Part shown: one piece after another, positions 4,143-63,598 of the stretch
Numbering within the stretch: the first letter of the stretch is position 1
Layout of the letters: the number at the start of each line of letters is the position of its first letter
Assembly: GCA_963709345.1 (NCBI GenBank)
Contig: CAVPVX010000011.1
Span: forward strand, 64,001-128,000
DNA: 64,000 nucleotides
Direction of reading: 5' to 3'
From: an uncultured Actinomycetes bacterium
GTDB lineage: Bacteria; Actinomycetota; Thermoleophilia; UBA2241
Made by a program: the position numbers and the translations under genes
The notes under the pieces: model-generated
What the model was told of the DNA's origin: nothing
The model's database searches: none
The model's input: only the letters and a program-made list of their open reading frames with translations

Positions 4143-6866
<2,724 letters not shown>

Positions 6867-6965
6867 CGGGACGCGAAGCACCGACCACCGGCGCCGGCCC
6901 GGGCTTGCCGAAGGGTGGCCCGGGCCGGAGTGCCGCGCCCGCCGGTCGAGGGGGGAGGTCGCTCG

Positions 6966-7523
6966 GTGGCAAGACTCGGACGTGAGATCGTGACGACGCT
7001 CGCCGGCGGGCGCGCGCTGAGCGTGCGTGACGCACGCACGAGGGACGCGCGCGCCGTCACCCGTCTGCTCGACGCGGTCGCCCGCGAGCCGGAGGTCACG
7101 CTGCTGCTGCTCCCCGGCGAGACGAAGGCCGGGGACTGGCGACGTCGCATCGCTGACGCCGCGGAGGCCGCGCGCGGGCTGTTTCTGCTCGCCGAGCTCG
7201 ACGGCGAGATCTCCGGTACTCTGGGCTTGTGGCCGGACGCCCACCCGGCCTCGGCGCACGTCGCCTGGGTCGGCATGTCGGTGGCCGCGGACCGCCGCGG
7301 CGTTGGAATCGGCGGCGCACTGCTCGAGGCGGCGCTCGCCTGGGCGGCCGGCCACGAGTTCACGCGCGCCGCGCTCGGCGTCTTCCCGGACAACCCCCGC
7401 GCGATCGGCTTCTACGAGCGACACGGCTTCGTGCGCGAGGGCCTCCGGCGCGCGCAGTACCGCCGCGGCGACGAGTATCATGACGAAGTGCTCATGGCCC
7501 GAAATCTCACGCCGACCTCCTGA
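6966..7523 (+). CDS. GNAT family N-acetyltransferase
   Basis: MSVAADRRGVGIGGALL acetyl-CoA motif A, VFPDNPRAIGFYERHGF; GGAGGT RBS before GTG 6966. Confidence 0.85.
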   Translation: MARLGREIVTTLAGGRALSVRDARTRDARAVTRLLDAVAREPEVTLLLLPGETKAGDWRRRIADAAEAARGLFLLAELDGEISGTLGLWPDAHPASAHVAWVGMSVAADRRGVGIGGALLEAALAWAAGHEFTRAALGVFPDNPRAIGFYERHGFVREGLRRAQYRRGDEYHDEVLMARNLTPTS

Positions 7524-50215: not shown

Positions 50216-51052
50216 GTGTCTGTTCATGATCGGTCAGGCACGAGGGAGAACGCCGGGGAGGCTTCGCTGATCGTGTCGGACGTTCGAGAGATGCTACCCG
50301 CCGAGAGGCGCTCGCGCATCGTTGCCGCGCTCAAGGCGCGCCGCGCCGTGCGCGTCAACGACCTGAGCGAAGACCTGGGCGTCTCCGAGATCACCATTCG
50401 TCGCGACCTCGTGCTGCTGGAGAAGGAAGGCGTACTCAAGCGCACCTACGGGGGCGCCGTGACGCGGCGGCAGGTGACGACGGAGCCGGACTACGAAGAG
50501 AGCGTCGCGACGAACGCGCCGGAGAAGGACCGCATCGCCAGGATCGCCGCGGCCATGATCGAGCCGCGCGACACCGTGTTTCTCGGCTCGGGCACCACCG
50601 TGGCGCAGATGCTGCGCCACCTCGACCTGGATCTCGAGGCGCGCATCGTGACGCATAACCTGGCCGCGGCTCTCGAGGCGCGCGGGCCCCGTCTCGAGTT
50701 CGTCTTCCTCGGCGGTCTGTACCGGCCGCATCTGGGAGCCGTCGAGGGTTCGTGGTCGCTGGACATGCTCGCGCAGTTCAACGCCGACAGGACGTTCCTC
50801 GGGGCGGATTGCCTGGACGTGAGCGCCGGTCTCACGACGCCGGGCCTCGCCGTCGCCGATCTGGAGTTGGCCATGATCCGGCGCACGCGCGGTGAGGTCA
50901 TCGTGCTGGCCGACAGCAGCAAGATCGGGCTGGTCGGCCCGGTCGTCATCTGCCCGCTCGACCAGATCGACGTCGTCGTGGTCGACGCCGGGGTCAGTCC
51001 GGAGATCTGCCATGAGATCGAGCGCGCCGGGCCGCAGTGCGAGGTGGTCTGA
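50216..51052 (+). CDS. DeoR/GlpR family transcriptional regulator (true start may be 50291)
   Basis: ERRSRI...LGVSEITIRRDL...RTYGGA HTH; FLGSGTT, LADSSK sensor motifs. Confidence 0.93.
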   Translation: MSVHDRSGTRENAGEASLIVSDVREMLPAERRSRIVAALKARRAVRVNDLSEDLGVSEITIRRDLVLLEKEGVLKRTYGGAVTRRQVTTEPDYEESVATNAPEKDRIARIAAAMIEPRDTVFLGSGTTVAQMLRHLDLDLEARIVTHNLAAALEARGPRLEFVFLGGLYRPHLGAVEGSWSLDMLAQFNADRTFLGADCLDVSAGLTTPGLAVADLELAMIRRTRGEVIVLADSSKIGLVGPVVICPLDQIDVVVVDAGVSPEICHEIERAGPQCEVV

Positions 51053-51154
51053 GCACCCCATGAGTACAGCGAACGCCATAGAACACGGCAGGCGTGCGCG
51101 GCGGAGCCGCGCCGGCCGCGCGCCGGCCGTGACGACCTCATCGTCGACGAAAGG

Positions 51155-52096
51155 GTGAACGACGTGGCAGCAGACGCACACCTCACTCCCGAGGCGATCA
51201 TCGCCCGCATAGAAGACTGGAAGGGTCTCGACGTCGCCTGGGAGGCCCTCGGCGGAGGGATCACCAATCACAATTACGTGCTCACGGTCAGCGGGCGTCC
51301 CGACATCCCGTGGGGCGGCAAGTACGTCCTGCGCATCCCGGGCGACGGCACCGAGACCTTCATCGATCGCGAGCGGGAGCACAAGAACCACGTTGCCGCC
51401 GCCGAGGCCGGCGTGACGCCGCCGATCCTCCACATGCTCGAGCCCGAGAAGTGCACGGTCGTGCCGTTCATCGAGGGCGAGACCATGCATCCGGAGTCGC
51501 TCGCCGGCCATCCGGAGCGCCTCGCCAAGGTCGTCGACGTCATGCGTACGTACCACGACACGGCGACGTTCGCCAACGAGATCGACGTGTTCGCCATGAT
51601 CCGCCAGTACATGGTGATGGCCCGCGACGTCGACGCCCCGCTGCCGGACGACATCGACTGGATGCTCGAACTCGGAGAGCGGATCGAGAAGGCGATGGGG
51701 CGGGACGCGCCGAGCCCGGCGGCCTGCCACAACGACCTGCTCTCCGAGAACTTCATTCTCGCCGCCGACGGCAAGATGTGGGTCATCGATTGGGAGTACG
51801 GCGGGATGTCCGACCCGTACTTCGACCTCGGCGACTTCTGCATCGAGCACCCCTTGTCCGACGACGAAGAGCGGTTCATCATCACTCGATACTGTGGAGA
51901 GATGAGAGAGGACCGCTACTCGCGCATGATGCTGCACAAGATCGTCGCGGACCTCTGGTGGAGCATCTGGGCGATGATCCAGGTCAAGCTCTCCAAGATC
52001 GACTTCGACTTCTACGCGTACGGCGAGAACAGGGTCGCCCGCTTGCATGCGAACGCCGGGAAGCCCGAGCTCGCCACGTGGTTCGCGGAGGTGTAG
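51155..52096 (+). CDS. Choline/ethanolamine kinase-like (LicA/APH-fold) phosphotransferase
   Basis: LGGGITNHNY, YVLRIPG, IDRERE, CHNDLLSENF Brenner motif, IDWEYGGM.D..FDLG choline-kinase motif. Confidence 0.88.
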   Translation: MNDVAADAHLTPEAIIARIEDWKGLDVAWEALGGGITNHNYVLTVSGRPDIPWGGKYVLRIPGDGTETFIDREREHKNHVAAAEAGVTPPILHMLEPEKCTVVPFIEGETMHPESLAGHPERLAKVVDVMRTYHDTATFANEIDVFAMIRQYMVMARDVDAPLPDDIDWMLELGERIEKAMGRDAPSPAACHNDLLSENFILAADGKMWVIDWEYGGMSDPYFDLGDFCIEHPLSDDEERFIITRYCGEMREDRYSRMMLHKIVADLWWSIWAMIQVKLSKIDFDFYAYGENRVARLHANAGKPELATWFAEV

Positions 52097-52173
52097 AGGC
52101 ATGTTCGCGGCACGCACGACGCACGGGGGTCCGCTCGCCGGACCGGGTCCAGACAACGAATCGGGAGCACGAC

Positions 52174-52986
52174 ATGAGCGATGACGCAACGCGGCCGGCC
52201 GGCGAAGTAGGGCCGGACGTCGGCATGGGCAAGGTCGATCCCGACCTCGCCAAGGTCTTTCAGGACGAGGCGCTGCGCGTCGTCGAGGCCGGCGAGAAGC
52301 AGGGTGTCGTGCTGCGCGTCATCGGCGCGCTCGCCTTCTTCCATCACTGCCCGGAGTTCGGCTTCATCCAGGAGAAGCTGAACCGGGTGTACACGGACAT
52401 CGACTTCGCCGCCTACGGCAAGCAGTCCCAGCAGATCCGCGAGTTCTTCGCCTCGATCGGCTACGAGGACGACGTCGAGATCAACGCCTTCCACTCCGAG
52501 GGCGGGCGACTCATCTTCAACAACCCGACCAACCACATCCACGTCGACGTGTTCATGGACAAGCTCGACTTCTGCCATCCCATCCCGTGGAAGGGCAGAC
52601 TCGAGGTCGACTCGCCGACGATCCCGCTCGCCGAGATGATGCTCGAGAAGATGCAGATCGTGAAGATCAACGAGAAGGACATCATCGACACGATCATGCT
52701 GCTGCGCGAGCATGAGATCGACGCCAACGACGAGGACCGCATCAACGGGCAGCGCGTGGCCAAGCTGTGCGCCGGCGAGTGGGGTCTGTGGCGCACGGTG
52801 AGCATGAACCTGGAGAAGGTGCGCGACTACCTGCCTCACGTAGACCTCGACGATGCCGACAAGCAGGTCGTCGCCAAGCGGGCTTCCGAGCTCCTGAGCG
52901 TCATGGATGACTACCCCAAGGGCACCAGGTGGAAGCTGCGCGCCAAGGTCGGCGACAAGGTCCGCTGGTACAACGTGGTCGACTGA
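52174..52986 (+). CDS. Uncharacterised nucleotidyltransferase-like protein (Pol-beta superfamily, AbiEii-like signature)
   Basis: LRVIGALA...RVYTDIDF, HVDVF, EKMQI...KDIID; GGAG RBS. Confidence 0.7.
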   Translation: MSDDATRPAGEVGPDVGMGKVDPDLAKVFQDEALRVVEAGEKQGVVLRVIGALAFFHHCPEFGFIQEKLNRVYTDIDFAAYGKQSQQIREFFASIGYEDDVEINAFHSEGGRLIFNNPTNHIHVDVFMDKLDFCHPIPWKGRLEVDSPTIPLAEMMLEKMQIVKINEKDIIDTIMLLREHEIDANDEDRINGQRVAKLCAGEWGLWRTVSMNLEKVRDYLPHVDLDDADKQVVAKRASELLSVMDDYPKGTRWKLRAKVGDKVRWYNVVD

Positions 52987-53013
52987 CCCCGCGATCTGAG
53001 AGGCAGCTGAGAT

Positions 53014-54015
53014 ATGGCATTCTGGAACAAGAAGGGCGGCTCGGACGACAAGCGCGTGCGGATCTTCTACGCCACCGACATCCACGGTTCCGAGCGCACC
53101 TACCGCAAGTTCATCAACTCCGGCAAGTTCTACAAGGTCGACCACCTCATCATGGGCGGCGACATCGAGGGCAAGTTCCTCGTGCCGATCGTCGACGAGG
53201 GCGGCGGGCACTACCGCGTCACGCTGCAAGAGGAACTCTCCAACCTGAGCGGCCCCGACGAGCTCCAGGCCGTCAAAGAGCGCATCGAGACGCTGGGCTT
53301 CTATCACGTGACCGTGAGTGAAGACGAGATCCGCGCCATGCAGGCCGACCAGAGTCTCGTCGACGCGGCCTTCAAGAAGGAGGCACACCGGCGCCTTCAG
53401 GACTGGATCGCTCTGGCCGACGAGCGGCTGGCCGACACGAACATCACGTGCTACGTGACGGGCGGCAACGACGACCCGCAGGAGCTCATCGACCTGCTCG
53501 AGGCCTCCCAGAGCGACCGCGTCATCAACTGCGAGGGACGCGTCATCCAGCTGGACGGCACGTTCCCGATGGCCAACTGCGGCTACAGCAACCCGACGCC
53601 GTGGGATACCCCGCGCGAGACGGACGAAGAGACGCTGGAGAAGTACCTGATGGAGTCGGTCGAGGGCATCGACGACTTCACGAACGCGATCTTCAACTTC
53701 CACGTGCCGCCATACGACTCCACGCTCGACGATTGTCCCAAGCTCGACTGGTCCACGGACCCGCCGGCGCCGATCGTCGTCGCCGGCGTGGCGCAGTCGG
53801 CGCCGGCCGGCAGCCACGCCGTCCGCAACATGGTCGAGCGCCACCAGCCGCTCCTCATGCTCACAGGGCACATCCACGAAGCGCGTGGCCTGGTCAAGGT
53901 CAAGCGCACGACCGTGGTCAATCCGGGTAGCGAATACGGCGAGGGGATCCTGAGGGGGTGCATACTGACACTCGAGCCGGGCAAGGTGGTCGGTTACCAG
54001 ATGACGTCGGGGTGA
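53014..54015 (+). CDS. Calcineurin-like metallophosphoesterase (Icc-related)
   Basis: TDIHGS, GGDIEGK, GGNDD, FHVPP, GHIHE, VNPGS. Confidence 0.9.
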   Translation: MAFWNKKGGSDDKRVRIFYATDIHGSERTYRKFINSGKFYKVDHLIMGGDIEGKFLVPIVDEGGGHYRVTLQEELSNLSGPDELQAVKERIETLGFYHVTVSEDEIRAMQADQSLVDAAFKKEAHRRLQDWIALADERLADTNITCYVTGGNDDPQELIDLLEASQSDRVINCEGRVIQLDGTFPMANCGYSNPTPWDTPRETDEETLEKYLMESVEGIDDFTNAIFNFHVPPYDSTLDDCPKLDWSTDPPAPIVVAGVAQSAPAGSHAVRNMVERHQPLLMLTGHIHEARGLVKVKRTTVVNPGSEYGEGILRGCILTLEPGKVVGYQMTSG

Positions 54016-54078
54016 AGCTGCCGCGCGCAGTGATGACGCATCTGTCACAAGTCTCAAGCGACTGACAGGGGGAACAAG

Positions 54079-55713
54079 ATGGCTACAGCCGCAGCAAAAC
54101 CCGAAGTCTTCAGCCGGAAGGCCTCGGGGCTCTCCAGGGTGATGTCGCCCTGGTCGGCATTCATGTACAACTTCCTGACCATGGGCGTGATCTTCCCATG
54201 GACGTTCGTGTGGGCGCCCGCGGCGTTCCCGGGCGTCTCCGTGTGGAGAGCGTGCCTGCTCGCGATCCTGCTGGAGCTCCCGATCGCGCTGGCCTACGTG
54301 TGGATGGCGACCGCCATGCCGCGCAGCGGTGGCGACTACGTGTTCCAGAGCCGCGTGTTCGGCGGGGCGATCGGGTTCCCGGTCGTCATGAGCGGGTTCG
54401 TGATCTGGATCCTGCAGTGGGTCGCGCTCGCCGGCTGGCTGCTGGCCACCCTCGGCGTGGCGCCTCTCTTGCTGGGGCTCGGGGTGAACTACGAGAGCAA
54501 GGGCCTCATCGACGCGGCCGTCTGGGCGCAGGGCAGCCAGGGCGTCGTGACCATCAGCATCATCGGGGCTGCCGCCATGGCGCTCCTTCTGGTCACGGGC
54601 TTCAAGAACTACGTCCGCCTGCAGTACTTCATGTTCGCGGCCACCGCGATCCTGGTCGCCGTCATGCTCATCCAGTTCCTGCGCACGTCGCCGGAGCAGT
54701 TCGCGACCGCGATGAACAGCTTCGCCAACATCGTGGACGGCCGGGCCGACTACTACACCTGGATCCAGGCCGACGTGACGGATGCCGGCGTCAATCTGCT
54801 GCCCAAGTTCGCGCTGGGCGCCACGCTGCTGGCTCTGCCGATCGTCTGGACCAGCCTCCAGTGGGCCACCTACAGCGTGCAGCAGGGCGGCGAGATCAAG
54901 GGCGCCCGCGTCTTCAAGAACCAGCTGCTCATCATCGTCGGCTCGATGGTCGCCGTGGGCTGCACGCTCGCGGTCATCGCCTGGGCCCTCGAAGGCGCAG
55001 TCGGTACGGCCTTCTTCAACGCCGTTTCGCACTCGTACTACTACGGAGTGAGCGCTTCCGGCGACGGGGTCGGCAGTGTGTTGCCCTTCCCCGGCATGTT
55101 CGCGATCGTGATCTCGCCGAACCCGATCATCGTCGTCCTGACGGCGGTCAGCTTCATGCTCGCTTCGCTGCAGATCACCTGCAACTGCTACATCGGCATG
55201 ACGCGCATCATGGTCGGCATGTCGCTCGACCGCACGCTGCCGACCTGGGTCTCCAAGGTCAACCCGCGCTTCCGCTCGCCGGTGAACGCGCACCTCATCT
55301 ACTTCGTCCTCGGTTGCGCCGTCATCATCGGCTACAACTATCTCGGTTGGTGGTACAGCATGACCCTGGGCGTGACCTTCGCCTGTGGCTACGTGTTCGT
55401 GGTCAGTTGTCTGGCGGCCGCGCTGCTGCCCTTCCGCGCCAAGTCGCTGTATGAGGCGTCCCCGGGCGCCAAGTACACGATCGGCGGGTTCCCGTTGGTC
55501 ACCATCTTCGGGTTCCTCGGGTTCTTCTTCGGGCTGGCCGCGCTCATCGCGTTCCTCACCCAGGACGCCTACGGCCTCAAGGGCACGACCCCGTACCTCG
55601 TCGTGGCCGGGATCTTCCTGGTGTCGCTCGTCGGGTACTGGATCGGCCGCGCCTACAACAAGAGCAAGGGCATCGACGTCAACTACGCCTTCCTCGAAGT
55701 GCCGCCGGAGTGA
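54079..55713 (+). CDS. APC family permease
   Basis: FSRKASGLSR, AMPRSGGDYVFQSR, GGEIK, DRTLP.W.SKVNPRFRSP, C-terminal EVPPE; about 12-14 TM helices. Confidence 0.9.
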   Translation: MATAAAKPEVFSRKASGLSRVMSPWSAFMYNFLTMGVIFPWTFVWAPAAFPGVSVWRACLLAILLELPIALAYVWMATAMPRSGGDYVFQSRVFGGAIGFPVVMSGFVIWILQWVALAGWLLATLGVAPLLLGLGVNYESKGLIDAAVWAQGSQGVVTISIIGAAAMALLLVTGFKNYVRLQYFMFAATAILVAVMLIQFLRTSPEQFATAMNSFANIVDGRADYYTWIQADVTDAGVNLLPKFALGATLLALPIVWTSLQWATYSVQQGGEIKGARVFKNQLLIIVGSMVAVGCTLAVIAWALEGAVGTAFFNAVSHSYYYGVSASGDGVGSVLPFPGMFAIVISPNPIIVVLTAVSFMLASLQITCNCYIGMTRIMVGMSLDRTLPTWVSKVNPRFRSPVNAHLIYFVLGCAVIIGYNYLGWWYSMTLGVTFACGYVFVVSCLAAALLPFRAKSLYEASPGAKYTIGGFPLVTIFGFLGFFFGLAALIAFLTQDAYGLKGTTPYLVVAGIFLVSLVGYWIGRAYNKSKGIDVNYAFLEVPPE

Positions 55714-56332: not shown

Positions 56333-58408
56333 ATGGATCCGAGCGAGTTCCGCGCTTCACATGCAGGCGCGGTCGTCAGCTGCCCTGAGGGCTACGCCGC
56401 CTTCGTGCCGGCGCCGCTGCCTCCTCGCCTGACGTACACGCGAGACCTCGTGCTCGCCCTCTCTCGCGCCGACGCCGCGCTCGGAGAGCTCTCGGGCGTC
56501 GGCGGCGAGATGCCCGAACCACACCTCCTGGACGCCTCGTTCAAACGTCAGGAGGCTCTCTGCTCCTCGCGCATCGAGGGCGCAGACGTGAGTCTCTCGG
56601 ATCTCTACCTCGACCAGGTGGGCGCCGCTCGCCCGAGCGTGTCGCGCGAGCACCTTCGCGAGGTGCGCAGCTGCATCTCGACCCTGCGCTTCGGCGTCGA
56701 GCTGCTCCGCGAAGAGCCGCTGTCGCTCGACTTCATCCGCGCGCTGCACGAGCGGCTGCTGCGCGGCGAAGTCGGCGGCGCACGCACTCCCGGCGAGTTC
56801 CGGCGCTCGCAGAACTGGGTCGGTCCTCCCGGCGCCACGCTGGCCACCGCCACCTACGTGCCGGCGCCGATGTCGGAGCTGCCCGAGGCGCTCGCGGCCT
56901 TCGAGGAGTTCATGCAGGAGCGCGGTCGCCTCCCGGACCTCATCCAGTGTGCGATGCTGCACGCCCAGTTCGAGAGCATCCACCCGTTCGTCGGGGGCAA
57001 CGGCCGCCTGGGCCGGCTCCTCATCACGCTCTTCCTTATCGAGCGGCAGCGGCTGACGCGCCCGCTGCTGTACCTCTCCGCCTTTCTCGAGGGGCACCGC
57101 GACGAGTACTACACGCTCCTGCAACGCGTGCGCACGCACAGTGAGTGGGTGCCGTGGCTGACGTTCTTCGCGGTCGGCGTCCGCGAGACCGCCGAGCGCG
57201 CGGCACGCCAGACGCGCGCGCTGATCGCTCACTACGGGCGCGACAGCGAGAAGGTCAAGGGACACGCGCTCACGCTGGCCGACGAGCTCTTTCGCACACC
57301 CTGCATGACGGTCCCCGAGGCGCAGCGCGTGCTCGAGGTGACCAACCCGACCGCGCGCCGCGCGGTGCGCGAGCTCGAGGCCAAGGGGCTGCTCGACGAG
57401 TGGGCCGAGAAGAGCTGGCCGCGGGTCTACCTCGCGCGGCACGTCCTCGATACCGTGCTCAACCCCGTCGAGGATCTGCGTCGCCTGCCGGGCGCCGAGG
57501 CGCAGGGCGCGGTGCTCAAGTCGGGGGCCGAGGACCAGCGTGGCCCTCTTCGTCGCGCCGACCGGCTCATGAACGAGGCGATGGCGATGGTCGACGCGGC
57601 CAGGATGCGGGGAGCCCGGCTCCGCCTCACGGGCGGGCTCGCCATCCGCCGCTACTGCACCGACCTCGACTTCATGGACCGCGAGTACTCCGACATCGAC
57701 TTCATCGGGCTCTCCGCTGAGAGGAAGGAGATCCACGAGGTCTTCGACGGCCTCGGCTACGTCGAGAACCGGTACGTCTCCCAGGCGACCGACTCCGGAC
57801 AGCTCCAGTTCATCAACCGCGAGGCGCTGGAGGGCAGGCGGACGGGCGCCGCCGAGAACGCCTCCGAGACGGGGTCGCCGTACGAGCCGCCGCTGGTCGA
57901 CCATATCGACGTCTTCCTGGACGTCATGCGCATGGACCACGACATCGACGTGAGCGAGCGGCTCGACATCGACGACTACGCGATATCGCCTGCCGATGCG
58001 TTCATCGCCAAGATGCAGATCGGGAAGATCAACCAGAAGGATGTCCACGACGTCATAGCTCTGGTCAAGGATGTGCCTCTTCGCGACATGGACGACGACG
58101 CCTCGATCGACCTGCTCCACATCGCCGCGGAGTGCTCTGACGACTGGGGGCTGTACCAGGACATCACGACCAACCTCGACATGGCTCTGGCGATGGTCGA
58201 CGATTACGGTCTGACGGAGTCGCAGCAGGACCGTGTCTACGCGCGGCTGGCCGCCATCAAGGAATCGGTGGAGGACGCGAGCAAGAGCATCCGCTGGCGC
58301 CTGCGCGCAACGGTGGGCGAGCGCGTTGCCTGGCGCCGCGAGATCGAGGAAACGGAGGGGACGCAGGTCATCGCGCCGGAGTGGGACTGGCGCCGCGATC
58401 TGGGGTGA
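56333..58408 (+). CDS. Fic-domain protein (Fic + winged helix) fused to a nucleotidyltransferase-like domain, copy 1
   Basis: SSRIEG inhibitory helix, PGEFRRSQNWVG, HPFVGGNGRLGR; from ~57560 LTGGLAIRRYC...REYSDIDF, homologous to 52174..52986. Confidence 0.88.
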   Translation: MDPSEFRASHAGAVVSCPEGYAAFVPAPLPPRLTYTRDLVLALSRADAALGELSGVGGEMPEPHLLDASFKRQEALCSSRIEGADVSLSDLYLDQVGAARPSVSREHLREVRSCISTLRFGVELLREEPLSLDFIRALHERLLRGEVGGARTPGEFRRSQNWVGPPGATLATATYVPAPMSELPEALAAFEEFMQERGRLPDLIQCAMLHAQFESIHPFVGGNGRLGRLLITLFLIERQRLTRPLLYLSAFLEGHRDEYYTLLQRVRTHSEWVPWLTFFAVGVRETAERAARQTRALIAHYGRDSEKVKGHALTLADELFRTPCMTVPEAQRVLEVTNPTARRAVRELEAKGLLDEWAEKSWPRVYLARHVLDTVLNPVEDLRRLPGAEAQGAVLKSGAEDQRGPLRRADRLMNEAMAMVDAARMRGARLRLTGGLAIRRYCTDLDFMDREYSDIDFIGLSAERKEIHEVFDGLGYVENRYVSQATDSGQLQFINREALEGRRTGAAENASETGSPYEPPLVDHIDVFLDVMRMDHDIDVSERLDIDDYAISPADAFIAKMQIGKINQKDVHDVIALVKDVPLRDMDDDASIDLLHIAAECSDDWGLYQDITTNLDMALAMVDDYGLTESQQDRVYARLAAIKESVEDASKSIRWRLRATVGERVAWRREIEETEGTQVIAPEWDWRRDLG

Positions 58409-58462: not shown

Positions 58463-60439
58463 ATGACCGGCATGGTCCCGCGGGATGTGTACGAGCTGAC
58501 GGGGGCCGCCGATCCGCGGCTCTCGCCGGACGGTGCCCGGGTGGCGTTCGTGGTCGGCGCCGTCGACGAGAAGGCGAATGCGTACAGGGCGGCGATCTGG
58601 CTGGCGGCGGCCGACGGGTCGGAGCCGCCGCGCCGGTTCACGAGCGGCGAGAAGGCGGACGCCGACCCGCGCTGGTCGCCGGACGGGGCGCACCTGGCCT
58701 TCATCTCGAACCGCGCCGGCAAGGCGTCGCAGTTGTACGTGCTGCCGGTGGCGGGAGGCGAGCCGCGCAAGCTCACGAGCCTCAAGGAGGACGTCTCGCA
58801 GGCCGTCTGGTCGCCGGACGGGGCGAGCATCGCCTTCGTCGCGCGTGTGCGCGACGCGGCCTACGAGGAAGAGGACGACAAGAAGCGGGCGCCGCGCCGC
58901 ATCACGCGCCTGCACTACAAGCTGGACAGCGTGGGGTGGACGGCCGACCGGCCGCAGCACCTCTTCGTCGTGCCGGTCGACGGGTCGGCCGAGCCGGTCC
59001 AGCTCACGGGCGGCGACTACGAGGACCACTCGCCGTGCTGGTCGCCGGACGGCGGGACGATCGCCTTCGTCTCCGCCCGTCATGAGGACTGGGACCTCTC
59101 GATGGCCGACGACGTGTACCTGGTCGACGCCGCCGGCGGGGAGCCGCGGCGTCTCACGCAGGGCGGCGGCAGCATCGGCGGCGTCTCCTGGTCGCCGGAC
59201 GGGTCGCGCCTCGCCGCGCACCGGTACGAGGGCGTGTTCGACGACCCCAAGCACAGCCAGGTCGCGCTGGTCGACCCGGAGAACGGCGCGTTCACACTCC
59301 TCACCAAGTCGCTCGACCTCAACTGCACGACGTATCCCGGGATGCGTGAGCCGCTCTGGGACGGCGACGGCCTCGTCTTCGTCGTCGAGGATCACGGGCG
59401 CGTGCACGTCTACCGCGTCCCGGCCGGCGGCTCCGGCGAGCCGCTTCTCGTCGTCGGCGGTGAGCGCGTCGTGACCGGCCTCGACGTGGCGGCCGGCCGG
59501 CTCGTGTTCACGGCGAGCGAGCCGGCGCGGCTGAGCGAGCTCTACGACGGCGGTCCGGCCGCCGGGCCGGACGACCCGGCGTCCGCGGGGCGTCGCCTCT
59601 CGTCTGTCGGTGAAGCGTTCGCCGCCGGGCGGGAGCTCGTGCTGCCGGAGCGCTTCACCGCCGTCTCGACGGACGGCAGCGAGGTCGACGCCTGGATCAT
59701 GCGGCCCGCCGGCAGCGAGCAGGGCAAGAAGTACCCCACCCTGCTCAACATCCACGGCGGGCCCTACGGCCAGTACGACGTCGGCTTCTTCGACGAGTTC
59801 CAGGTGTACTGCGGTGCCGGCTACGCCGTCGTCTTCAGCAATCCTCGCGGCTCCTCGGGGGGCACCGAGGAGTGGGCGCGGGCCATCCGCGGCCCCGGCG
59901 ACGACGGCGACGGCTGGGGCTCCGTCGACTACGACGACTGCATGGCCGTCGTGGACGAGGCGGTCCGCCGGTTCGACTTCGTCGACGCGGACCGCCTCGG
60001 CGTCATCGGCGGCTCGTACGGCGGCTACATGACGTCGTGGATCGTCGGCCACACGGACAGGTTCAAGGCTGCCGTCTCCGAGCGCGCCGTCAACAACTTC
60101 GACTCGCAGTGGGGCTCCAGCGACTACGGCTGGGACTTCAAAGGCTACATGGGCGCGTTCCTGTTCGAGGACGTGGAGACGTATCTGAAGGTTTCGCCTT
60201 CCAGCTACGCGACGGACATTCACACGCCGCTGCTCATCCTGCACTCGGAGGACGACCTGCGTTGTCCGGTCGAGCAGGCGGAGCACCTCTTCGTGACCCT
60301 CCGCCTGCTCAAGCGCCCGGTCGAGATGGTGCGTTTCCCGGCCGAGTCCCACGAGCTGACCCGGTCCGGCAACCCCGTCCACCGCGTGCAGCGGTTCGAG
60401 ATCGTGCTGGAATGGTTCGACCGGTACCTCAAGTCCTGA
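58463..60439 (+). CDS. S9 family (acylaminoacyl/dipeptidyl) peptidase
   Basis: Repeated WSPDG beta-propeller blades, IHGGP, GGSYGG nucleophile, HSEDDLRC, ESHEL. Confidence 0.93.
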   Translation: MTGMVPRDVYELTGAADPRLSPDGARVAFVVGAVDEKANAYRAAIWLAAADGSEPPRRFTSGEKADADPRWSPDGAHLAFISNRAGKASQLYVLPVAGGEPRKLTSLKEDVSQAVWSPDGASIAFVARVRDAAYEEEDDKKRAPRRITRLHYKLDSVGWTADRPQHLFVVPVDGSAEPVQLTGGDYEDHSPCWSPDGGTIAFVSARHEDWDLSMADDVYLVDAAGGEPRRLTQGGGSIGGVSWSPDGSRLAAHRYEGVFDDPKHSQVALVDPENGAFTLLTKSLDLNCTTYPGMREPLWDGDGLVFVVEDHGRVHVYRVPAGGSGEPLLVVGGERVVTGLDVAAGRLVFTASEPARLSELYDGGPAAGPDDPASAGRRLSSVGEAFAAGRELVLPERFTAVSTDGSEVDAWIMRPAGSEQGKKYPTLLNIHGGPYGQYDVGFFDEFQVYCGAGYAVVFSNPRGSSGGTEEWARAIRGPGDDGDGWGSVDYDDCMAVVDEAVRRFDFVDADRLGVIGGSYGGYMTSWIVGHTDRFKAAVSERAVNNFDSQWGSSDYGWDFKGYMGAFLFEDVETYLKVSPSSYATDIHTPLLILHSEDDLRCPVEQAEHLFVTLRLLKRPVEMVRFPAESHELTRSGNPVHRVQRFEIVLEWFDRYLKS

Positions 60440-61455
60440 AGCCGGTCGCGATCGTCGCGCTTGCGCTGATCGTCGCGGCGGCCGCCGCCGCGGTGGTACG
60501 GCCGGCGGCGGCCGCGTCCGCCGGCGCCCGCGTACCGGCCTCGGCGGCGCGGCCCCCGGCCCGTTGGGTCGCCGTCTCCGTCGCGACCCTGTGGGTGGCG
60601 CCCGGTAGCACGCGGGCCGTGGACGCTCCCTCGACCGCGTCTCCCGCGGACCCGCGCGCCTGGGTCGCGGGCATGACGACGACGCAGAAGCGCTGGCTCG
60701 TCGGCAAGCTCGAGACGCAAGCGCTCTACGGCGACAAGGTGTACCTGCTCGAGACGTCCGGCGCCTGGTCCCGGGTCGCCGTCGCCGGCCAGCCGACGCC
60801 GCGGAGCCGCTGGGGCTACCCCGGCTGGCTGCCGACGAGGCAGCTCACGCGCACCACCCCGGCGGCCGCGCCGCGGATCGCCGTGGTGCGGCGGCCTACG
60901 GCGTGGCTGTGGGCGTCGCCCGGTCTGTCCGGGCGCGTGCTCGAGCTCTCCTACGGCACGCGCCTCCAGGCGCTCAGCTGGACGGCGGCCGCCGTCGAGG
61001 TCGCGCGCCTCGACGGCGGCCGCGCCTTCGTGCGGCGCGCGGCGGTGGCGCTGCGCGAGCCCGGCTCCGCGTGGCCGCCGCTCACGGGCGCGAAGCTGAC
61101 GACCGAAGCACGGCGCTTTCTCGGTCGGCAGTACCTGTGGGCGGGCACATCCGGCTTCGGCTTCGACTGCTCCGGCTTCACGCACGCCGTGTACCGCGCC
61201 CTCGGCACGACGATCCCGCGGGACGGCGCGCCGCAGGCCGGGGCGGGGCGCAGGATCGCGTCTCGCGGCGCCCTGCTGCCCGGCGACCTGGTCTTCTTCC
61301 GCGCCGCCGGCGGCGCTATCCACCACGTCGGCATGTGCGTCGGCGGCGGCCGGATGATCCACGCGCCGTCCACCGGCCGCCCGGTCGCGATCGTCTCGCT
61401 CGCCGCCGAGCCGTATCGCAGCGAGTTCGCCGGCGGTCGCCGGCTCGTCCCGTGA
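60436..61455 (+). CDS. Secreted NlpC/P60 peptidase, YkfC-like (gamma-D-glutamyl endopeptidase); start uncertain
   Basis: Signal-like N-terminus, VSVATLW, ETQALYG, GYPGW, YLWAGTSGFGFDCSGF, HHVG, MIHAP. Confidence 0.88.
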   Translation: MKPVAIVALALIVAAAAAAVVRPAAAASAGARVPASAARPPARWVAVSVATLWVAPGSTRAVDAPSTASPADPRAWVAGMTTTQKRWLVGKLETQALYGDKVYLLETSGAWSRVAVAGQPTPRSRWGYPGWLPTRQLTRTTPAAAPRIAVVRRPTAWLWASPGLSGRVLELSYGTRLQALSWTAAAVEVARLDGGRAFVRRAAVALREPGSAWPPLTGAKLTTEARRFLGRQYLWAGTSGFGFDCSGFTHAVYRALGTTIPRDGAPQAGAGRRIASRGALLPGDLVFFRAAGGAIHHVGMCVGGGRMIHAPSTGRPVAIVSLAAEPYRSEFAGGRRLVP

Positions 61456-61522: not shown

Positions 61523-63598
61523 ATGGACGCGACGGATTTCCAGGCCCCCGAGGCAGGCCACCTGGTCGCCACGGAGGACGGCTGTGAGGCGTTCATGCCC
61601 GCCCCGCTGCCGCCCCGGCTGACCTACGGCGGCGAGCTCGTGGAGGCGATGTCGGCCGCCGACGCCGCGCTGGGCGAGCTCTCCGGCCTCGCCGGCGGGC
61701 GGCGCGATCCGCAGATACTCGTCGCGCCGTTCCTCCGCCAGGAGGCCGTCCTCTCGTCGCGCATCGAGGGCACGCCGGCGACGCTCGTCGACCTGCTCTT
61801 CGACGAAGTCGCGGCGGCTCCCGACCTCGCGCTGCGCGAGAACCTGCGCGAGGTGCGCAACTACGTCGCCGCGCTCATGTACGGTGTCGACCGCCTCGCC
61901 GAGCTGCCGCTCTCCAGTCGGCTCGTCCTCGAGTTGCACGAACGGTTGCTGAAGGGCGTGGGCGACGCCAGCTGGACGCCCGGGGAGTTCCGTAGCGGCC
62001 AGAACTGGATCGGCCCGCCGGGTTCGACGCTCGAGACCGCCGTCTACGTGCCGCCGCCGGTCCCCGAGATGCATGCCGCTCTCTCCGAGTGGGACCGCTT
62101 CCTCGCAGGAGCGCACGGGTCTGCCGCCGCTCGTCCAGTGCGCCCTCGTGCACGAGCAGTTCGAGGCGATCCACCCGTTCCTGGAGGGCAACGGCCGCCT
62201 CGGACGGCTCCTGATCACGCTCTTCCTGATCGACCGCGGGCGCCTCTCGCATCCGCTCCTCTATCCCTCCGCCTACATCGAGGCGCACCGCGACGACTAC
62301 TACGGACTGCTGCAGCACATGCGCACGCGCGGGGAGTGGGAGCCGTGGCTGCTCTTCTTCATGGACGCGATCCGAGAGACTGCCGAGCGCGCCGCCGAGC
62401 AGGTACGCGCGCTCATGAAGCTCCGCGAGCTGTACCGCTCAAGGGTCACGGGCCACGCGCGCCGCCTGGTCGACGACCTCTTCCGGACACCCTTCGTCAC
62501 CGTGCCGGAGGCTCAGCAGGCGCTCTCCGTCAGCAACGCGACGGCGCGCAAGGCCGTCCGCGATCTGGAGGAGTGGGGCATGCTCGAGGAGCTGGCCGAG
62601 CGGCGCTGGCCGCGCGCGTACATCGCGCGGCCCATCCTCGACGCCATCCAGGAGCCGCTCGAGAGCCTGCGCCTGACGTCGGAGACCAAGACCAAGGGCG
62701 CGCCGCTGAAGACGGGGACCGCGCTCGAGGAGACGCCGGACCGCCCGGCCGATCTGCTCATGGCCGAGGCGATGCGCATCATCGACGAGGCGCGTCGGTA
62801 CGGGGTCCAGGTCCGCCTCATGGGCGGCCTCGCCGTGCGTCGCTACTGCACCGACCTCGACTTCATGGACCGGGAGTACTCGGACATCGACCTCGTCGGC
62901 CTCTCCATCCAGAACCGCGAGCTGCACCAGGTCTTCACCCGCCTCGGCTACGTCGAGAACCGCGTCGTGACCGAGGCGACCGGCGCCGGGCAGCTGCAGT
63001 ACGTCAAGACGGAGGCGCTGCGCGATGCCGGGGGGCGTACCGCATCGGCGTCAGCAAGAGGCAGGCCGACGGACCCGCGAGCCTCGTCGACCACATCGAC
63101 CTCTTCATGGACGTCATGCGCATGGACCACGACCTCGACGTCCGCGGCCGCCTGCTCGTCGACGAGTACGCGATCTCGCCGGCCGACGCCTTCATCGGCA
63201 AGGTCCAGATCGGCCAGATCAACGCCAAGGATGCGCACGACGTCATCGCGCTGGTCAAAGATGTGCCGCTCCGCGAGGCCGACGACGAGTCGTCGATCTG
63301 CCTGCCGTACCTGGCCGAGACCTGCGCCGACGATTGGGGCCTCTACCAGGACGTCGTGACCAACATCGACGTCGTGCTGGCCACGGTCGACGACTTCGAC
63401 CTCTCCAGGGAGGAGGCGGCGTGGGTCTACGGGCGGCTCACGGCGATCCGTGAGGCCATCCGGAGCGAGGAGAAGACGGTACGCTGGAAACTGCGCGCGA
63501 GGGTCGGGAAGCGGGTCGCGTGGCGTCGCGAGATCGAGGACACGGACGGGACCGACGTGGTCGCGCCGGAGTGGGACTGGAGGCGCGACCTCGGCTGA
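61523..63598 (+). CDS. Fic-nucleotidyltransferase fusion, copy 2; two compensating frameshifts (~62106 and ~63030)
   Basis: GGAGGT RBS; N- and C-termini in the 61523 frame; middle (HPFLEGNGRLGR, LMGGLAVRRYC..REYSDIDL) in the 62073 frame; ends APEWDWRRDLG like copy 1. Confidence 0.85.
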   Translation: MDATDFQAPEAGHLVATEDGCEAFMPAPLPPRLTYGGELVEAMSAADAALGELSGLAGGRRDPQILVAPFLRQEAVLSSRIEGTPATLVDLLFDEVAAAPDLALRENLREVRNYVAALMYGVDRLAELPLSSRLVLELHERLLKGVGDASWTPGEFRSGQNWIGPPGSTLETAVYVPPPVPEMHAALSEWDRFLAGAHGSAAARPVRPRARAVRGDPPVPGGQRPPRTAPDHALPDRPRAPLASAPLSLRLHRGAPRRLLRTAAAHAHARGVGAVAALLHGRDPRDCRARRRAGTRAHEAPRAVPLKGHGPRAPPGRRPLPDTLRHRAGGSAGALRQQRDGAQGRPRSGGVGHARGAGRAALAARVHRAAHPRRHPGAAREPAPDVGDQDQGRAAEDGDRARGDAGPPGRSAHGRGDAHHRRGASVRGPGPPHGRPRRASLLHRPRLHGPGVLGHRPRRPLHPEPRAAPGLHPPRLRREPRRDRGDRRRAAAVRQDGGAARCRGAYRIGVSKRQADGPASLVDHIDLFMDVMRMDHDLDVRGRLLVDEYAISPADAFIGKVQIGQINAKDAHDVIALVKDVPLREADDESSICLPYLAETCADDWGLYQDVVTNIDVVLATVDDFDLSREEAAWVYGRLTAIREAIRSEEKTVRWKLRARVGKRVAWRREIEDTDGTDVVAPEWDWRRDLG

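Follow-up and report, generated by a model that had tools for sequence, protein, structure and literature searches.

The window analysed here is a 64,000-nucleotide stretch of the genome of an uncultured soil and water Actinomycetes bacterium of the class Thermoleophilia (UBA2241; assembly GCA_963709345.1, contig CAVPVX010000011.1, positions 64,001 to 128,000 of the forward strand). Our subject is its gene at 56333..58408 on the forward strand, in which a Fic domain and a winged helix are joined to a nucleotidyltransferase (NTase) domain. The open reading frame (ORF) runs through 691 codons and specifies a protein of 691 residues followed by a stop, with an N-terminus that agrees with those of homologues also beginning MDPSEF. 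A first-pass annotation had proposed that two nucleotide-transfer domains share this polypeptide, and this stands: a Fic half and a half with an NTase fold lie in the single ORF, and 16 genomes of relatives keep the frame over residues 1–691. The motifs that it quoted are all present, namely SSRIEG (residues 78–83), HPFVGGNGRLGR (217–228), GGLA...REYSDIDF (434–457) and AKMQIGKINQKDVHD (559–573), with the strings DDWGLYQDITTNL and RWRLRATVGERVAW near the C-terminus. The analysis demonstrates the domain anatomy of the protein, the conservation of both of its active sites and its syntenic setting in the chromosome. Below, P0001 denotes the fused protein and P0002 a free-standing 270-residue paralogue of its C-terminal domain, encoded at 52174..52986.

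The Fic and winged-helix half

Residues 42–123 match the Pfam family Fic_N (PF13784; 54.2 bits, cut-off 26.7) and residues 129–235 the family Fic (PF02661; 65.8 bits, cut-off 24). The PADLOC model of SoFic, which has no curated cut-off, covers residues 20–374 with positions 5–357 of its 361 (E value 1.7e-96), and solved SoFic chains match the N-terminal half of the protein with an E value of 1e-32; the earlier assignment of a class II Fic protein with a winged helix is thus borne out. The likeness to SoFic of Shewanella oneidensis (SO_4266) is collinear over residues 20–374 and takes in an N-terminal helix, the motif S-x-x-I-E-[GN], the Fic core and the winged helix; HTH_20 and MarR matches in Pfam fall at residues 319–355, below threshold. 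The NCBIfam SoFic equivalog NF046030 is not reached by the fused protein, which scores 130.8 bits against a cut-off of 550. SoFic also differs in length, since it has 372–374 residues and stops after the winged helix, whereas the fused protein runs on for 316 residues.

The inhibitory motif of class II Fic proteins has the form (S/T)xxxE(G/N). SSRIEG is aligned opposite SSEIEN of SoFic, and S[SA]RIEG is kept in all 11 of the relatives' loci; the class is defined by an inhibitory motif lying N-terminal of the Fic core (PMC3667792). At the active site the SoFic signature HPFIDGNGRTGR aligns with HPFVGGNGRLGR of the fused protein, in which the consensus Asp is replaced by Gly221. The signature His and Phe, the GNGR and both Arg residues are kept, and the strict motif HxFx(D/E)GNGRxxR is broken owing to Gly221. 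The pattern HPFxxGNGRxxR under which the site was first recorded is indeed present, but it conceals this loss of the consensus Asp/Glu. Gly221 is invariant, both among the 31 aligned orthologues and in the relatives' loci (11/11). HxFx(D/E)GNGRxxR is described as the motif of adenylylating Fic proteins, and proteins whose centre departs from it are taken to act in other ways (Goepfert et al., 2013, PMC3667792). Taken together, the alignments show a Fic centre that lies off the consensus and that is predicted to be gated by the inhibitory motif.

Close free-standing relatives of this half occur in the same genus. In three genomes (G019, G024 and G018), proteins that are 51–60% identical to the Fic–winged helix half stop right past residue ~384–391, in open frames of 404–439 residues, and are thus SoFic-like proteins without the fusion.

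The nucleotidyltransferase domain

The likeness of the C-terminal domain to P0002, first seen by eye, is real: BLASTP aligns residues 409–672 with residues 26–270 of P0002 at 77/269 identities (29%; E value 8e-35). Among 53 fused and free-standing sequences G434, D454, D456, H524, D526, K560, K569, D570 and D573 are invariant, and the motifs of the domain read G434-G435, R450-x3-D454-I-D456, H524-x-D526, K560 and K569-D570-x-x-D573, with a variable insert at about 496–520. The Pol-beta superfamily is marked by hG[GS], followed by DhD and a third carboxylate on the next strand, in an alpha/beta NTase fold. The fused protein has G434-G435, D454-I-D456 and D526 at these places, all of them invariant, and the modelled fold of P0002 has NTases only among its top matches.

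That model, made with AlphaFold from 25 sequences, has a mean predicted local distance difference test score (pLDDT) of 85.2 and a predicted template modelling score (pTM) of 0.81. Its top Foldseek matches are JHP933, TglT/MenT3, MenT1, CCA-adding enzymes, LnuA and ANT(2''), and VIA-align gives Z scores of 13.0 for MenT1 (172 residues, root-mean-square deviation 3.3), 12.7 for ANT(2'')-Ia, 12.1 for 5uvd, 11.5 for JHP933, 10.9 for MenT3 and 10.8 for LnuA. The Pol-beta fold, whose absence the first-pass annotation had named as fatal to its proposal, is what the model returns. In the full-length model (mean pLDDT 60.7, pTM 0.44) the Fic half is mostly below 50, and residues 409–672 are mostly at 80–94 with the same order of secondary structure as in P0002. 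A complex prediction of residues 1–380 with 400–691 scored 0.00, which is no verdict and carries no weight for or against binding. The C-terminal domain is apparently an active Pol-beta nucleotidyltransferase with a catalytically intact centre.

No Pfam, NCBIfam or PADLOC model claims the domain in either the fused protein or P0002, and searches of solved structures by sequence, with P0002 or its profile, gave chance-level matches alone (haemoglobin, filaggrin). Below threshold, 25 family members give Pfam matches to NTP_transf_5 (7/25, best E value 0.0005), MdcG (7) and AbiEii (3/25, best E value 0.083). NTP_transf_5 (PF14907, an uncharacterised nucleotidyltransferase family) is thus the most frequent of these, and it also matches several relatives and labels one Atlas cluster in which 15% of the members carry it, but its 31.2-bit cut-off is never reached by members of the family.

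The domain had also been likened to the AbiEii/MenT type. According to Dy et al. (2014, PMC3985639), four features mark AbiEii/DUF1814 proteins: a long spacer between motifs I and II, an Arg within motif II, a motif III centred on Lys and a motif IV with +DxxD. The domain has every one of them, as the long spacer, R450-x3-D454, K560 and K569-D570-V-H-D573; the spacer has 18 residues in the fused protein and 22 in P0002, against 15 in AbiEii. Alignment with hhalign to 11 true AbiEii sequences of relatives places the motifs in register, although weakly (probability 19.4%, pairwise E value 0.0012). The signature therefore stands, with an invariant Arg placed four residues ahead of DxD and an invariant +DxxD, but membership does not: PF08843 gives no match to the fused protein or P0002 at E values up to 1. 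We regard the domain as one with an AbiEii-like signature that, by these alignments, falls outside PF08843. The structural likeness extends to MenT1 (Rv0078A, 8an5) and MenT3/TglT, which share the Pol-beta NTase fold with P0002. AbiEii and MenT proteins, in contrast, are patchy or mobile and belong to two-gene operons, whereas the fused family is syntenic, lacks an AbiEi/MenA-type partner and is much more acidic (median net charge of the fused NTase domain -20 and isoelectric point 4.7, against -5 and 5.4 in the AbiEii set); free-standing relatives of the fused domain belong instead to clusters with transporters and phosphoesterases. A six-frame PF08843 search of the genome finds a single gene, on contig 1, and true AbiEii genes occur in only 7 of 24 genomes of the genus. 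Beside the fused gene there is no AbiEi/MenA-type partner and no ORF that is small or antitoxin-like, its neighbours being a YGGT gene upstream and an S9 peptidase gene downstream. A classical AbiE/MenAT module was accordingly set aside, PF08843 not being matched and no antitoxin-like neighbour being present.

ANT(2'')-Ia (4xje) and LnuA (4fo1), with the Z scores given above, were compared by fold. The likeness includes an acidic enzyme and relatives that stand beside APH/choline-kinase-like kinases and amine permeases. Identity is only about 10–16%, the aligned ranges end near residue 204, and the additional C-terminal helical half, with its KDxxD and W-x-L-R motifs, has no counterpart in the shorter ANT(2'')-Ia and LnuA. 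The comparison is based on fold and context and carries no link to antibiotic resistance.

Distribution and origin of the fusion

When the C-terminal part was searched against proteins of 380–1210 residues there were 265 matches, and among the 120 matches listed 119 carry Fic; orthologues are more than 70% identical over the whole length. The relatives searched comprise 40 genomes, 24 of the same genus and 16 of other families of the class. The full fused protein is found in 21 of the 24 genus genomes (16 of them with the protein whole, the other 5 with it in pieces), at about 80% identity within the genus, and was not found in three genus genomes that are 93–100% complete. Both halves occur together in none of the 16 genomes of other families, which have one half or the other only. 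Names attached to database copies and related contigs are those of uncultured Thermoleophilia or Actinomycetota.

An artefactual joining of two genes is ruled out because 16 relatives' genomes hold a single frame over residues 1–691. The fusion is genuine and lineage-specific, and the full-length orthologues, the Fic-bearing matches and the count in the genus uphold the earlier view that it is real. One argument then offered for it, a junction in frame in both paralogues, fares less well: the paralogue that was named, P0002, is free-standing, has no junction and follows a kinase gene in another frame. A true second fusion, which was not named, lies at 61523..63598; we refer to it as copy 2 and to the gene at 56333..58408 as copy 1. 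No description of a Fic–NTase fusion was found in the literature searched, supplementary files and InterPro architectures lying outside that search. Nucleotides are attached to proteins, RNA and metabolites chiefly by enzymes of two folds, Fic and Pol-beta nucleotidyltransferase, and finding them fused and conserved in nature makes it worth testing directly whether both domains serve one common target or pathway.

A quick maximum-likelihood tree of 93 rows, from which 4 of 97 candidates were left out for short coverage, gathers the 12 fused domains within a single group of 15 that is nested among free-standing ones, with a value of 93 in the Shimodaira–Hasegawa-like approximate likelihood-ratio test (SH-aLRT). 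The other three rows of the group are 290–351 residues long and may be cut gene calls. Its sister is a free-standing pair, P0243/P0245 (SH-aLRT 94). The tail of 19 residues that follows the NTase domain is near-constant in fused forms and is missing from free-standing P0002-type relatives in the family alignment.

Some relatives with assemblies of few contigs (G001, G008, G010, G012 and G021) have one or the other fused paralogue broken up into two or three neighbouring frames, and this suggests the kind of indel error common in such assemblies, not decay of the gene on repeated occasions.

Free-standing relatives of the NTase domain

There are 4352 homologues of about the length of P0002, all of them unnamed, and the NTase-like domain forms 1454 representative clusters at 50% identity. 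The cluster that contains P0002 lies on the forward strand and consists of a DeoR regulator, a choline/ethanolamine-kinase-like gene, the NTase-like gene, a metallophosphoesterase and an APC permease. Among 47 Thermoleophilia-type and 33 Chloroflexota loci respectively, the NTase-like gene has as a neighbour a metallophosphoesterase in 44 and 18, an APC permease in 35 and 17, a kinase in 34 and 18 and a DeoR regulator in 33 and 24. Only matches over half or more of the query are counted, contig ends cut many of the loci, and the gene order is rearranged in Chloroflexota. The copy on contig 3 of this genome has a phosphoesterase, an APC permease, an AsnC regulator and a class III aminotransferase, and that on a plasmid of Halobellus limi stands between a metallophosphoesterase and an APC permease, adjoining aldehyde and alcohol dehydrogenases.

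The NTase-like gene, metallophosphoesterase and APC permease thus recur as a set in Actinomycetota, Chloroflexota and a haloarchaeon, often with a choline/ethanolamine-kinase-like gene, a class III aminotransferase or aldehyde dehydrogenase and a DeoR, AsnC or IclR regulator. The set appears to be an undescribed module for the use of amines or amino alcohols, and the free-standing context points to the handling of small molecules, probably amines. A large unnamed NTase family is delimited in this way, and its ties to metallophosphoesterases and amine-type permeases provide a starting point for the search for a substrate.

The pairing with a phosphoesterase bears on another proposal, in which writer and eraser would be combined in one chain, as in GlnE or GlnD: the NTase would nucleotidylylate a protein and the Fic half would mainly deAMPylate it, or the reverse, with the neighbouring metallophosphoesterase as eraser in the case of the free-standing relatives. 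SoFic is described as deAMPylating constitutively (bioRxiv 10.64898/2026.07.09.737422), copy 1 conserves the inhibitory Glu and has a broken AMP-transfer consensus, and a phosphoesterase accompanies nearly every free-standing NTase-like gene. The idea nonetheless is drawn purely from gene pairing, and the permeases, kinases and dehydrogenases found with the free-standing genes suggest metabolism over signalling, so that we think it unlikely.

Genomic context and the adjoining fused paralogue

The gene order at the locus is YGGT gene, fused gene, S9 peptidase, NlpC/P60 gene and copy 2 (Table 1), and past copy 2 there are CMD, CbiZ, MTHFR-like, EamA and nitroreductase genes, so that the surroundings are ordinary metabolic ones. 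No antitoxin-like ORF, mobile element or defence gene adjoins the fused gene. Inspection for inverted repeats upstream of both fused genes and scans for promoters and terminators found nothing, and we propose no operator. The locus is chromosomal and syntenic and looks unlike a mobile toxin–antitoxin module; the context speaks against a classical toxin–antitoxin pair.

Table 1. Features of the fused gene and its surroundings (positions in the window)
Feature	Coordinates	Strand	Evidence or remark
Whole fused gene (copy 1)	56333..58408	+	Fic_N / Fic / winged helix / linker / NTase-like domain / conserved tail; collinear orthologues over 1–691 in 16 genus genomes
Inhibitory-helix motif S78-S-R-I-E82-G83	56564..56581	+	Within Pfam Fic_N match 42–123; class II (S/T)xxxE(G/N)
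Fic core, residues 129–235	56717..57037	+	Pfam PF02661, E value 6.3e-18
Fic signature H217-P-F-V-G221-G-N-G-R-L-G-R228	56981..57016	+	Gly at consensus Asp/Glu position; alignment to SoFic
SoFic-type C-terminal winged helix-turn-helix, about residues 290–375	57200..57457	+	PADLOC SoFic profile; boundaries approximate
Linker, residues 376–408	57458..57556	+	Low model confidence; conserved K396-S397
Predicted Pol-beta-type nucleotidyltransferase domain, residues 409–672	57557..58348	+	Homology to P0002, invariant columns, fold of P0002
Tail of 19 residues ending ...IAPEWDWRRDLG	58349..58405	+	Nearly invariant among fused proteins
P0002, free-standing NTase-like paralogue, 270 residues	52174..52986	+	Within cluster 50216..55713: DeoR / kinase / NTase-like / metallophosphoesterase / APC permease
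Second Fic–winged helix–NTase paralogue (copy 2)	61523..63598	+	Canonical HPFLEGNGRLGR; middle, ~62105..63030, in another frame
S9 peptidase with PD40 repeats	58463..60439	+	Pfam; downstream of fused gene, between both fused paralogues; adjacent in 10/11 relatives' loci

The two fused paralogues are separated by the S9 peptidase gene and an SH3b-NlpC/P60 peptidase gene (60430..61455, forward strand). Copy 2, one of at least six NTase-like copies in the genome, has both ends in one frame and its middle in another as assembled. Four relatives have intact counterparts with about 58% identity at a distance of 2–3 kb from copy 1. In three of four related sequencing runs, the short-read contigs have one base fewer at 62104 and an extra G in the G-run at 63029, and because they differ at these two positions both frame breaks are absent in relatives; the breaks may be assembly indels or recent lesions. 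Among the sequencing runs searched, the DNA runs had shares of at most 0.19 and no RNA run was listed, from which we make no statement on expression or habitat.

The paralogues differ consistently at the metal-binding position of the Fic signature, with Gly in copy 1 and Glu in copy 2. The canonical HPF[LV]EGNGRLGR of copy 2 is found in this window and in five of six relatives' loci, the sixth (L124) giving no pattern match. The Gly suggests that copy 1 is not a standard Mg-dependent AMP transferase; the Glu-bearing copy 2 may still be one. This difference between adjoining paralogues offers a natural experiment on the role of the metal-binding residue.

One alternative is that the protein is a double effector of translation arrest or abortive infection, in which the Fic half would AMPylate EF-Tu and the NTase half would add nucleotides to the 3' ends of tRNA, with the inhibitory Glu and the fusion holding both activities until a trigger such as phage infection or stress. 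MenT1, a tRNA-modifying toxin, is the best structural match of P0002 (Z 13.0), MenT3 follows at 10.9, the AbiEii-specific Arg of motif II and +DxxD pentad are present, and there are several paralogues per genome. On the Fic side, the match to the PADLOC SoFic defence model has an E value of 1.7e-96, SoFic is described as targeting EF-Tu and inhibiting translation (bioRxiv 10.64898/2026.07.09.737422), and Sofic as a toxic abortive-infection protein (PMC12249575). PADLOC SoFic is a single-gene defence locus, however, whereas the fused gene occupies a syntenic chromosomal site with neither an antitoxin-like neighbour nor a defence island. The gene is near-universal and about 80% identical in a genus where true AbiEii is patchy, an NTase domain with a net charge of -20 is a poor fit to RNA binding, the family is nearly absent from plasmid and phage collections, and the Fic motif has no acidic residue. 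We therefore consider a double toxin rather unlikely.

Proposed function

Our preferred interpretation, to which we assign a probability of roughly 0.45, is that the fused protein is a housekeeping regulator or enzyme, and not a mobile toxin–antitoxin or abortive-infection module, formed by a genuine and vertically inherited fusion of a SoFic-type Fic protein with an NTase. A self-inhibited SoFic-type Fic protein with a DNA-binding winged helix would have captured at its C-terminus a Pol-beta NTase domain from an unnamed family, distant kin of AbiEii/MenT and ANT(2'')/LnuA, and the fusion has been passed on vertically within one lineage at a fixed site. The NTase domain would probably move a nucleoside monophosphate to a hydroxyl of a cationic small molecule or a protein, and the Fic and winged-helix half would probably add a nucleotide-derived group to a protein or remove one. 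SoFic is described as AMPylating and deAMPylating EF-Tu and as binding its own promoter (bioRxiv 10.64898/2026.07.09.737422); by analogy, EF-Tu would be the leading candidate target, and the Fic half may also bind its own promoter.

Several points weigh against a housekeeping role. The SoFic family is listed by PADLOC as a phage-defence system, and the genome has the multiple NTase-like copies that toxin families often have. The structural scores of the toxin MenT1 and of the small-molecule enzymes are tied, so that the modelled fold alone cannot choose between them, and net charge is only a rough guide to the type of substrate. The context of metallophosphoesterases and permeases belongs to the other main branch of the tree, that of P0002 and the contig 3 copy, and not to the branch of the fused domain, whose nearest free-standing relatives are paired NTase-like genes beside a DUF362 and an ABC-F gene. 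With its poorly modelled Fic half, the full-length model supports no reading of contacts between the domains. Finally, the NTase domain matches none of 50,697 records of a phage collection and 1 of 72,556 records of a plasmid collection (Halobellus limi), a scarcity that speaks against a mobile module but is weak evidence given the few records of uncultured Thermoleophilia in them.

Control in cis is a further option, in which the Fic–winged helix half would act on the NTase as an antitoxin or regulator within the same chain, neutralising it through AMPylation or contact, or in which the NTase fold would be a mere ligand sensor serving a DNA-binding regulator. Antitoxins that modify their toxin exist. 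A MarR-type winged helix joined to an NTase-like domain occurs elsewhere in the family (P0332), the conserved C-terminal tail is specific to fused forms, and SoFic, as noted, is described as binding its own promoter (bioRxiv 10.64898/2026.07.09.737422). The invariance of all the NTase catalytic residues speaks against a role as sensor only, we can name no modification site and contacts between the domains cannot be read from the model; control in cis seems to us improbable.

A bolder possibility would be a two-step system that makes its own donor, in which the NTase would produce a nucleoside diphosphate-linked cationic metabolite and the Fic half would place the phospho-amine, in place of AMP, on a protein such as EF-Tu. 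The substrate would be a phosphorylated amino alcohol or a similar cationic metabolite, activated in a manner comparable to CDP-choline (cytidine diphosphocholine), and the winged helix would be a tie to transcription. AnkX transfers from CDP-choline onto protein. We raise this as a long shot because the Fic motif departs from the AMPylation consensus, choline/ethanolamine-kinase-like genes and APC permeases lie near relatives of the NTase domain, and the net charge of the domain is -20; if true, it would be a new post-translational modification system within one chain.

Other members of the family

Apart from Fic, partners joined to the NTase-like domain are rare, and include an AhpC domain or a phosphoribosyltransferase domain besides the MarR-type winged helix of P0332. 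On contig 7 of this genome, two NTase-like genes with intact motifs face each other at 5161..6087 (forward strand) and ~6131..7000 (reverse strand). They adjoin a DUF362 gene with a twin-arginine translocation (TAT) signal and an ABC-F ATPase gene, and the pair recurs in several genomes of the genus.

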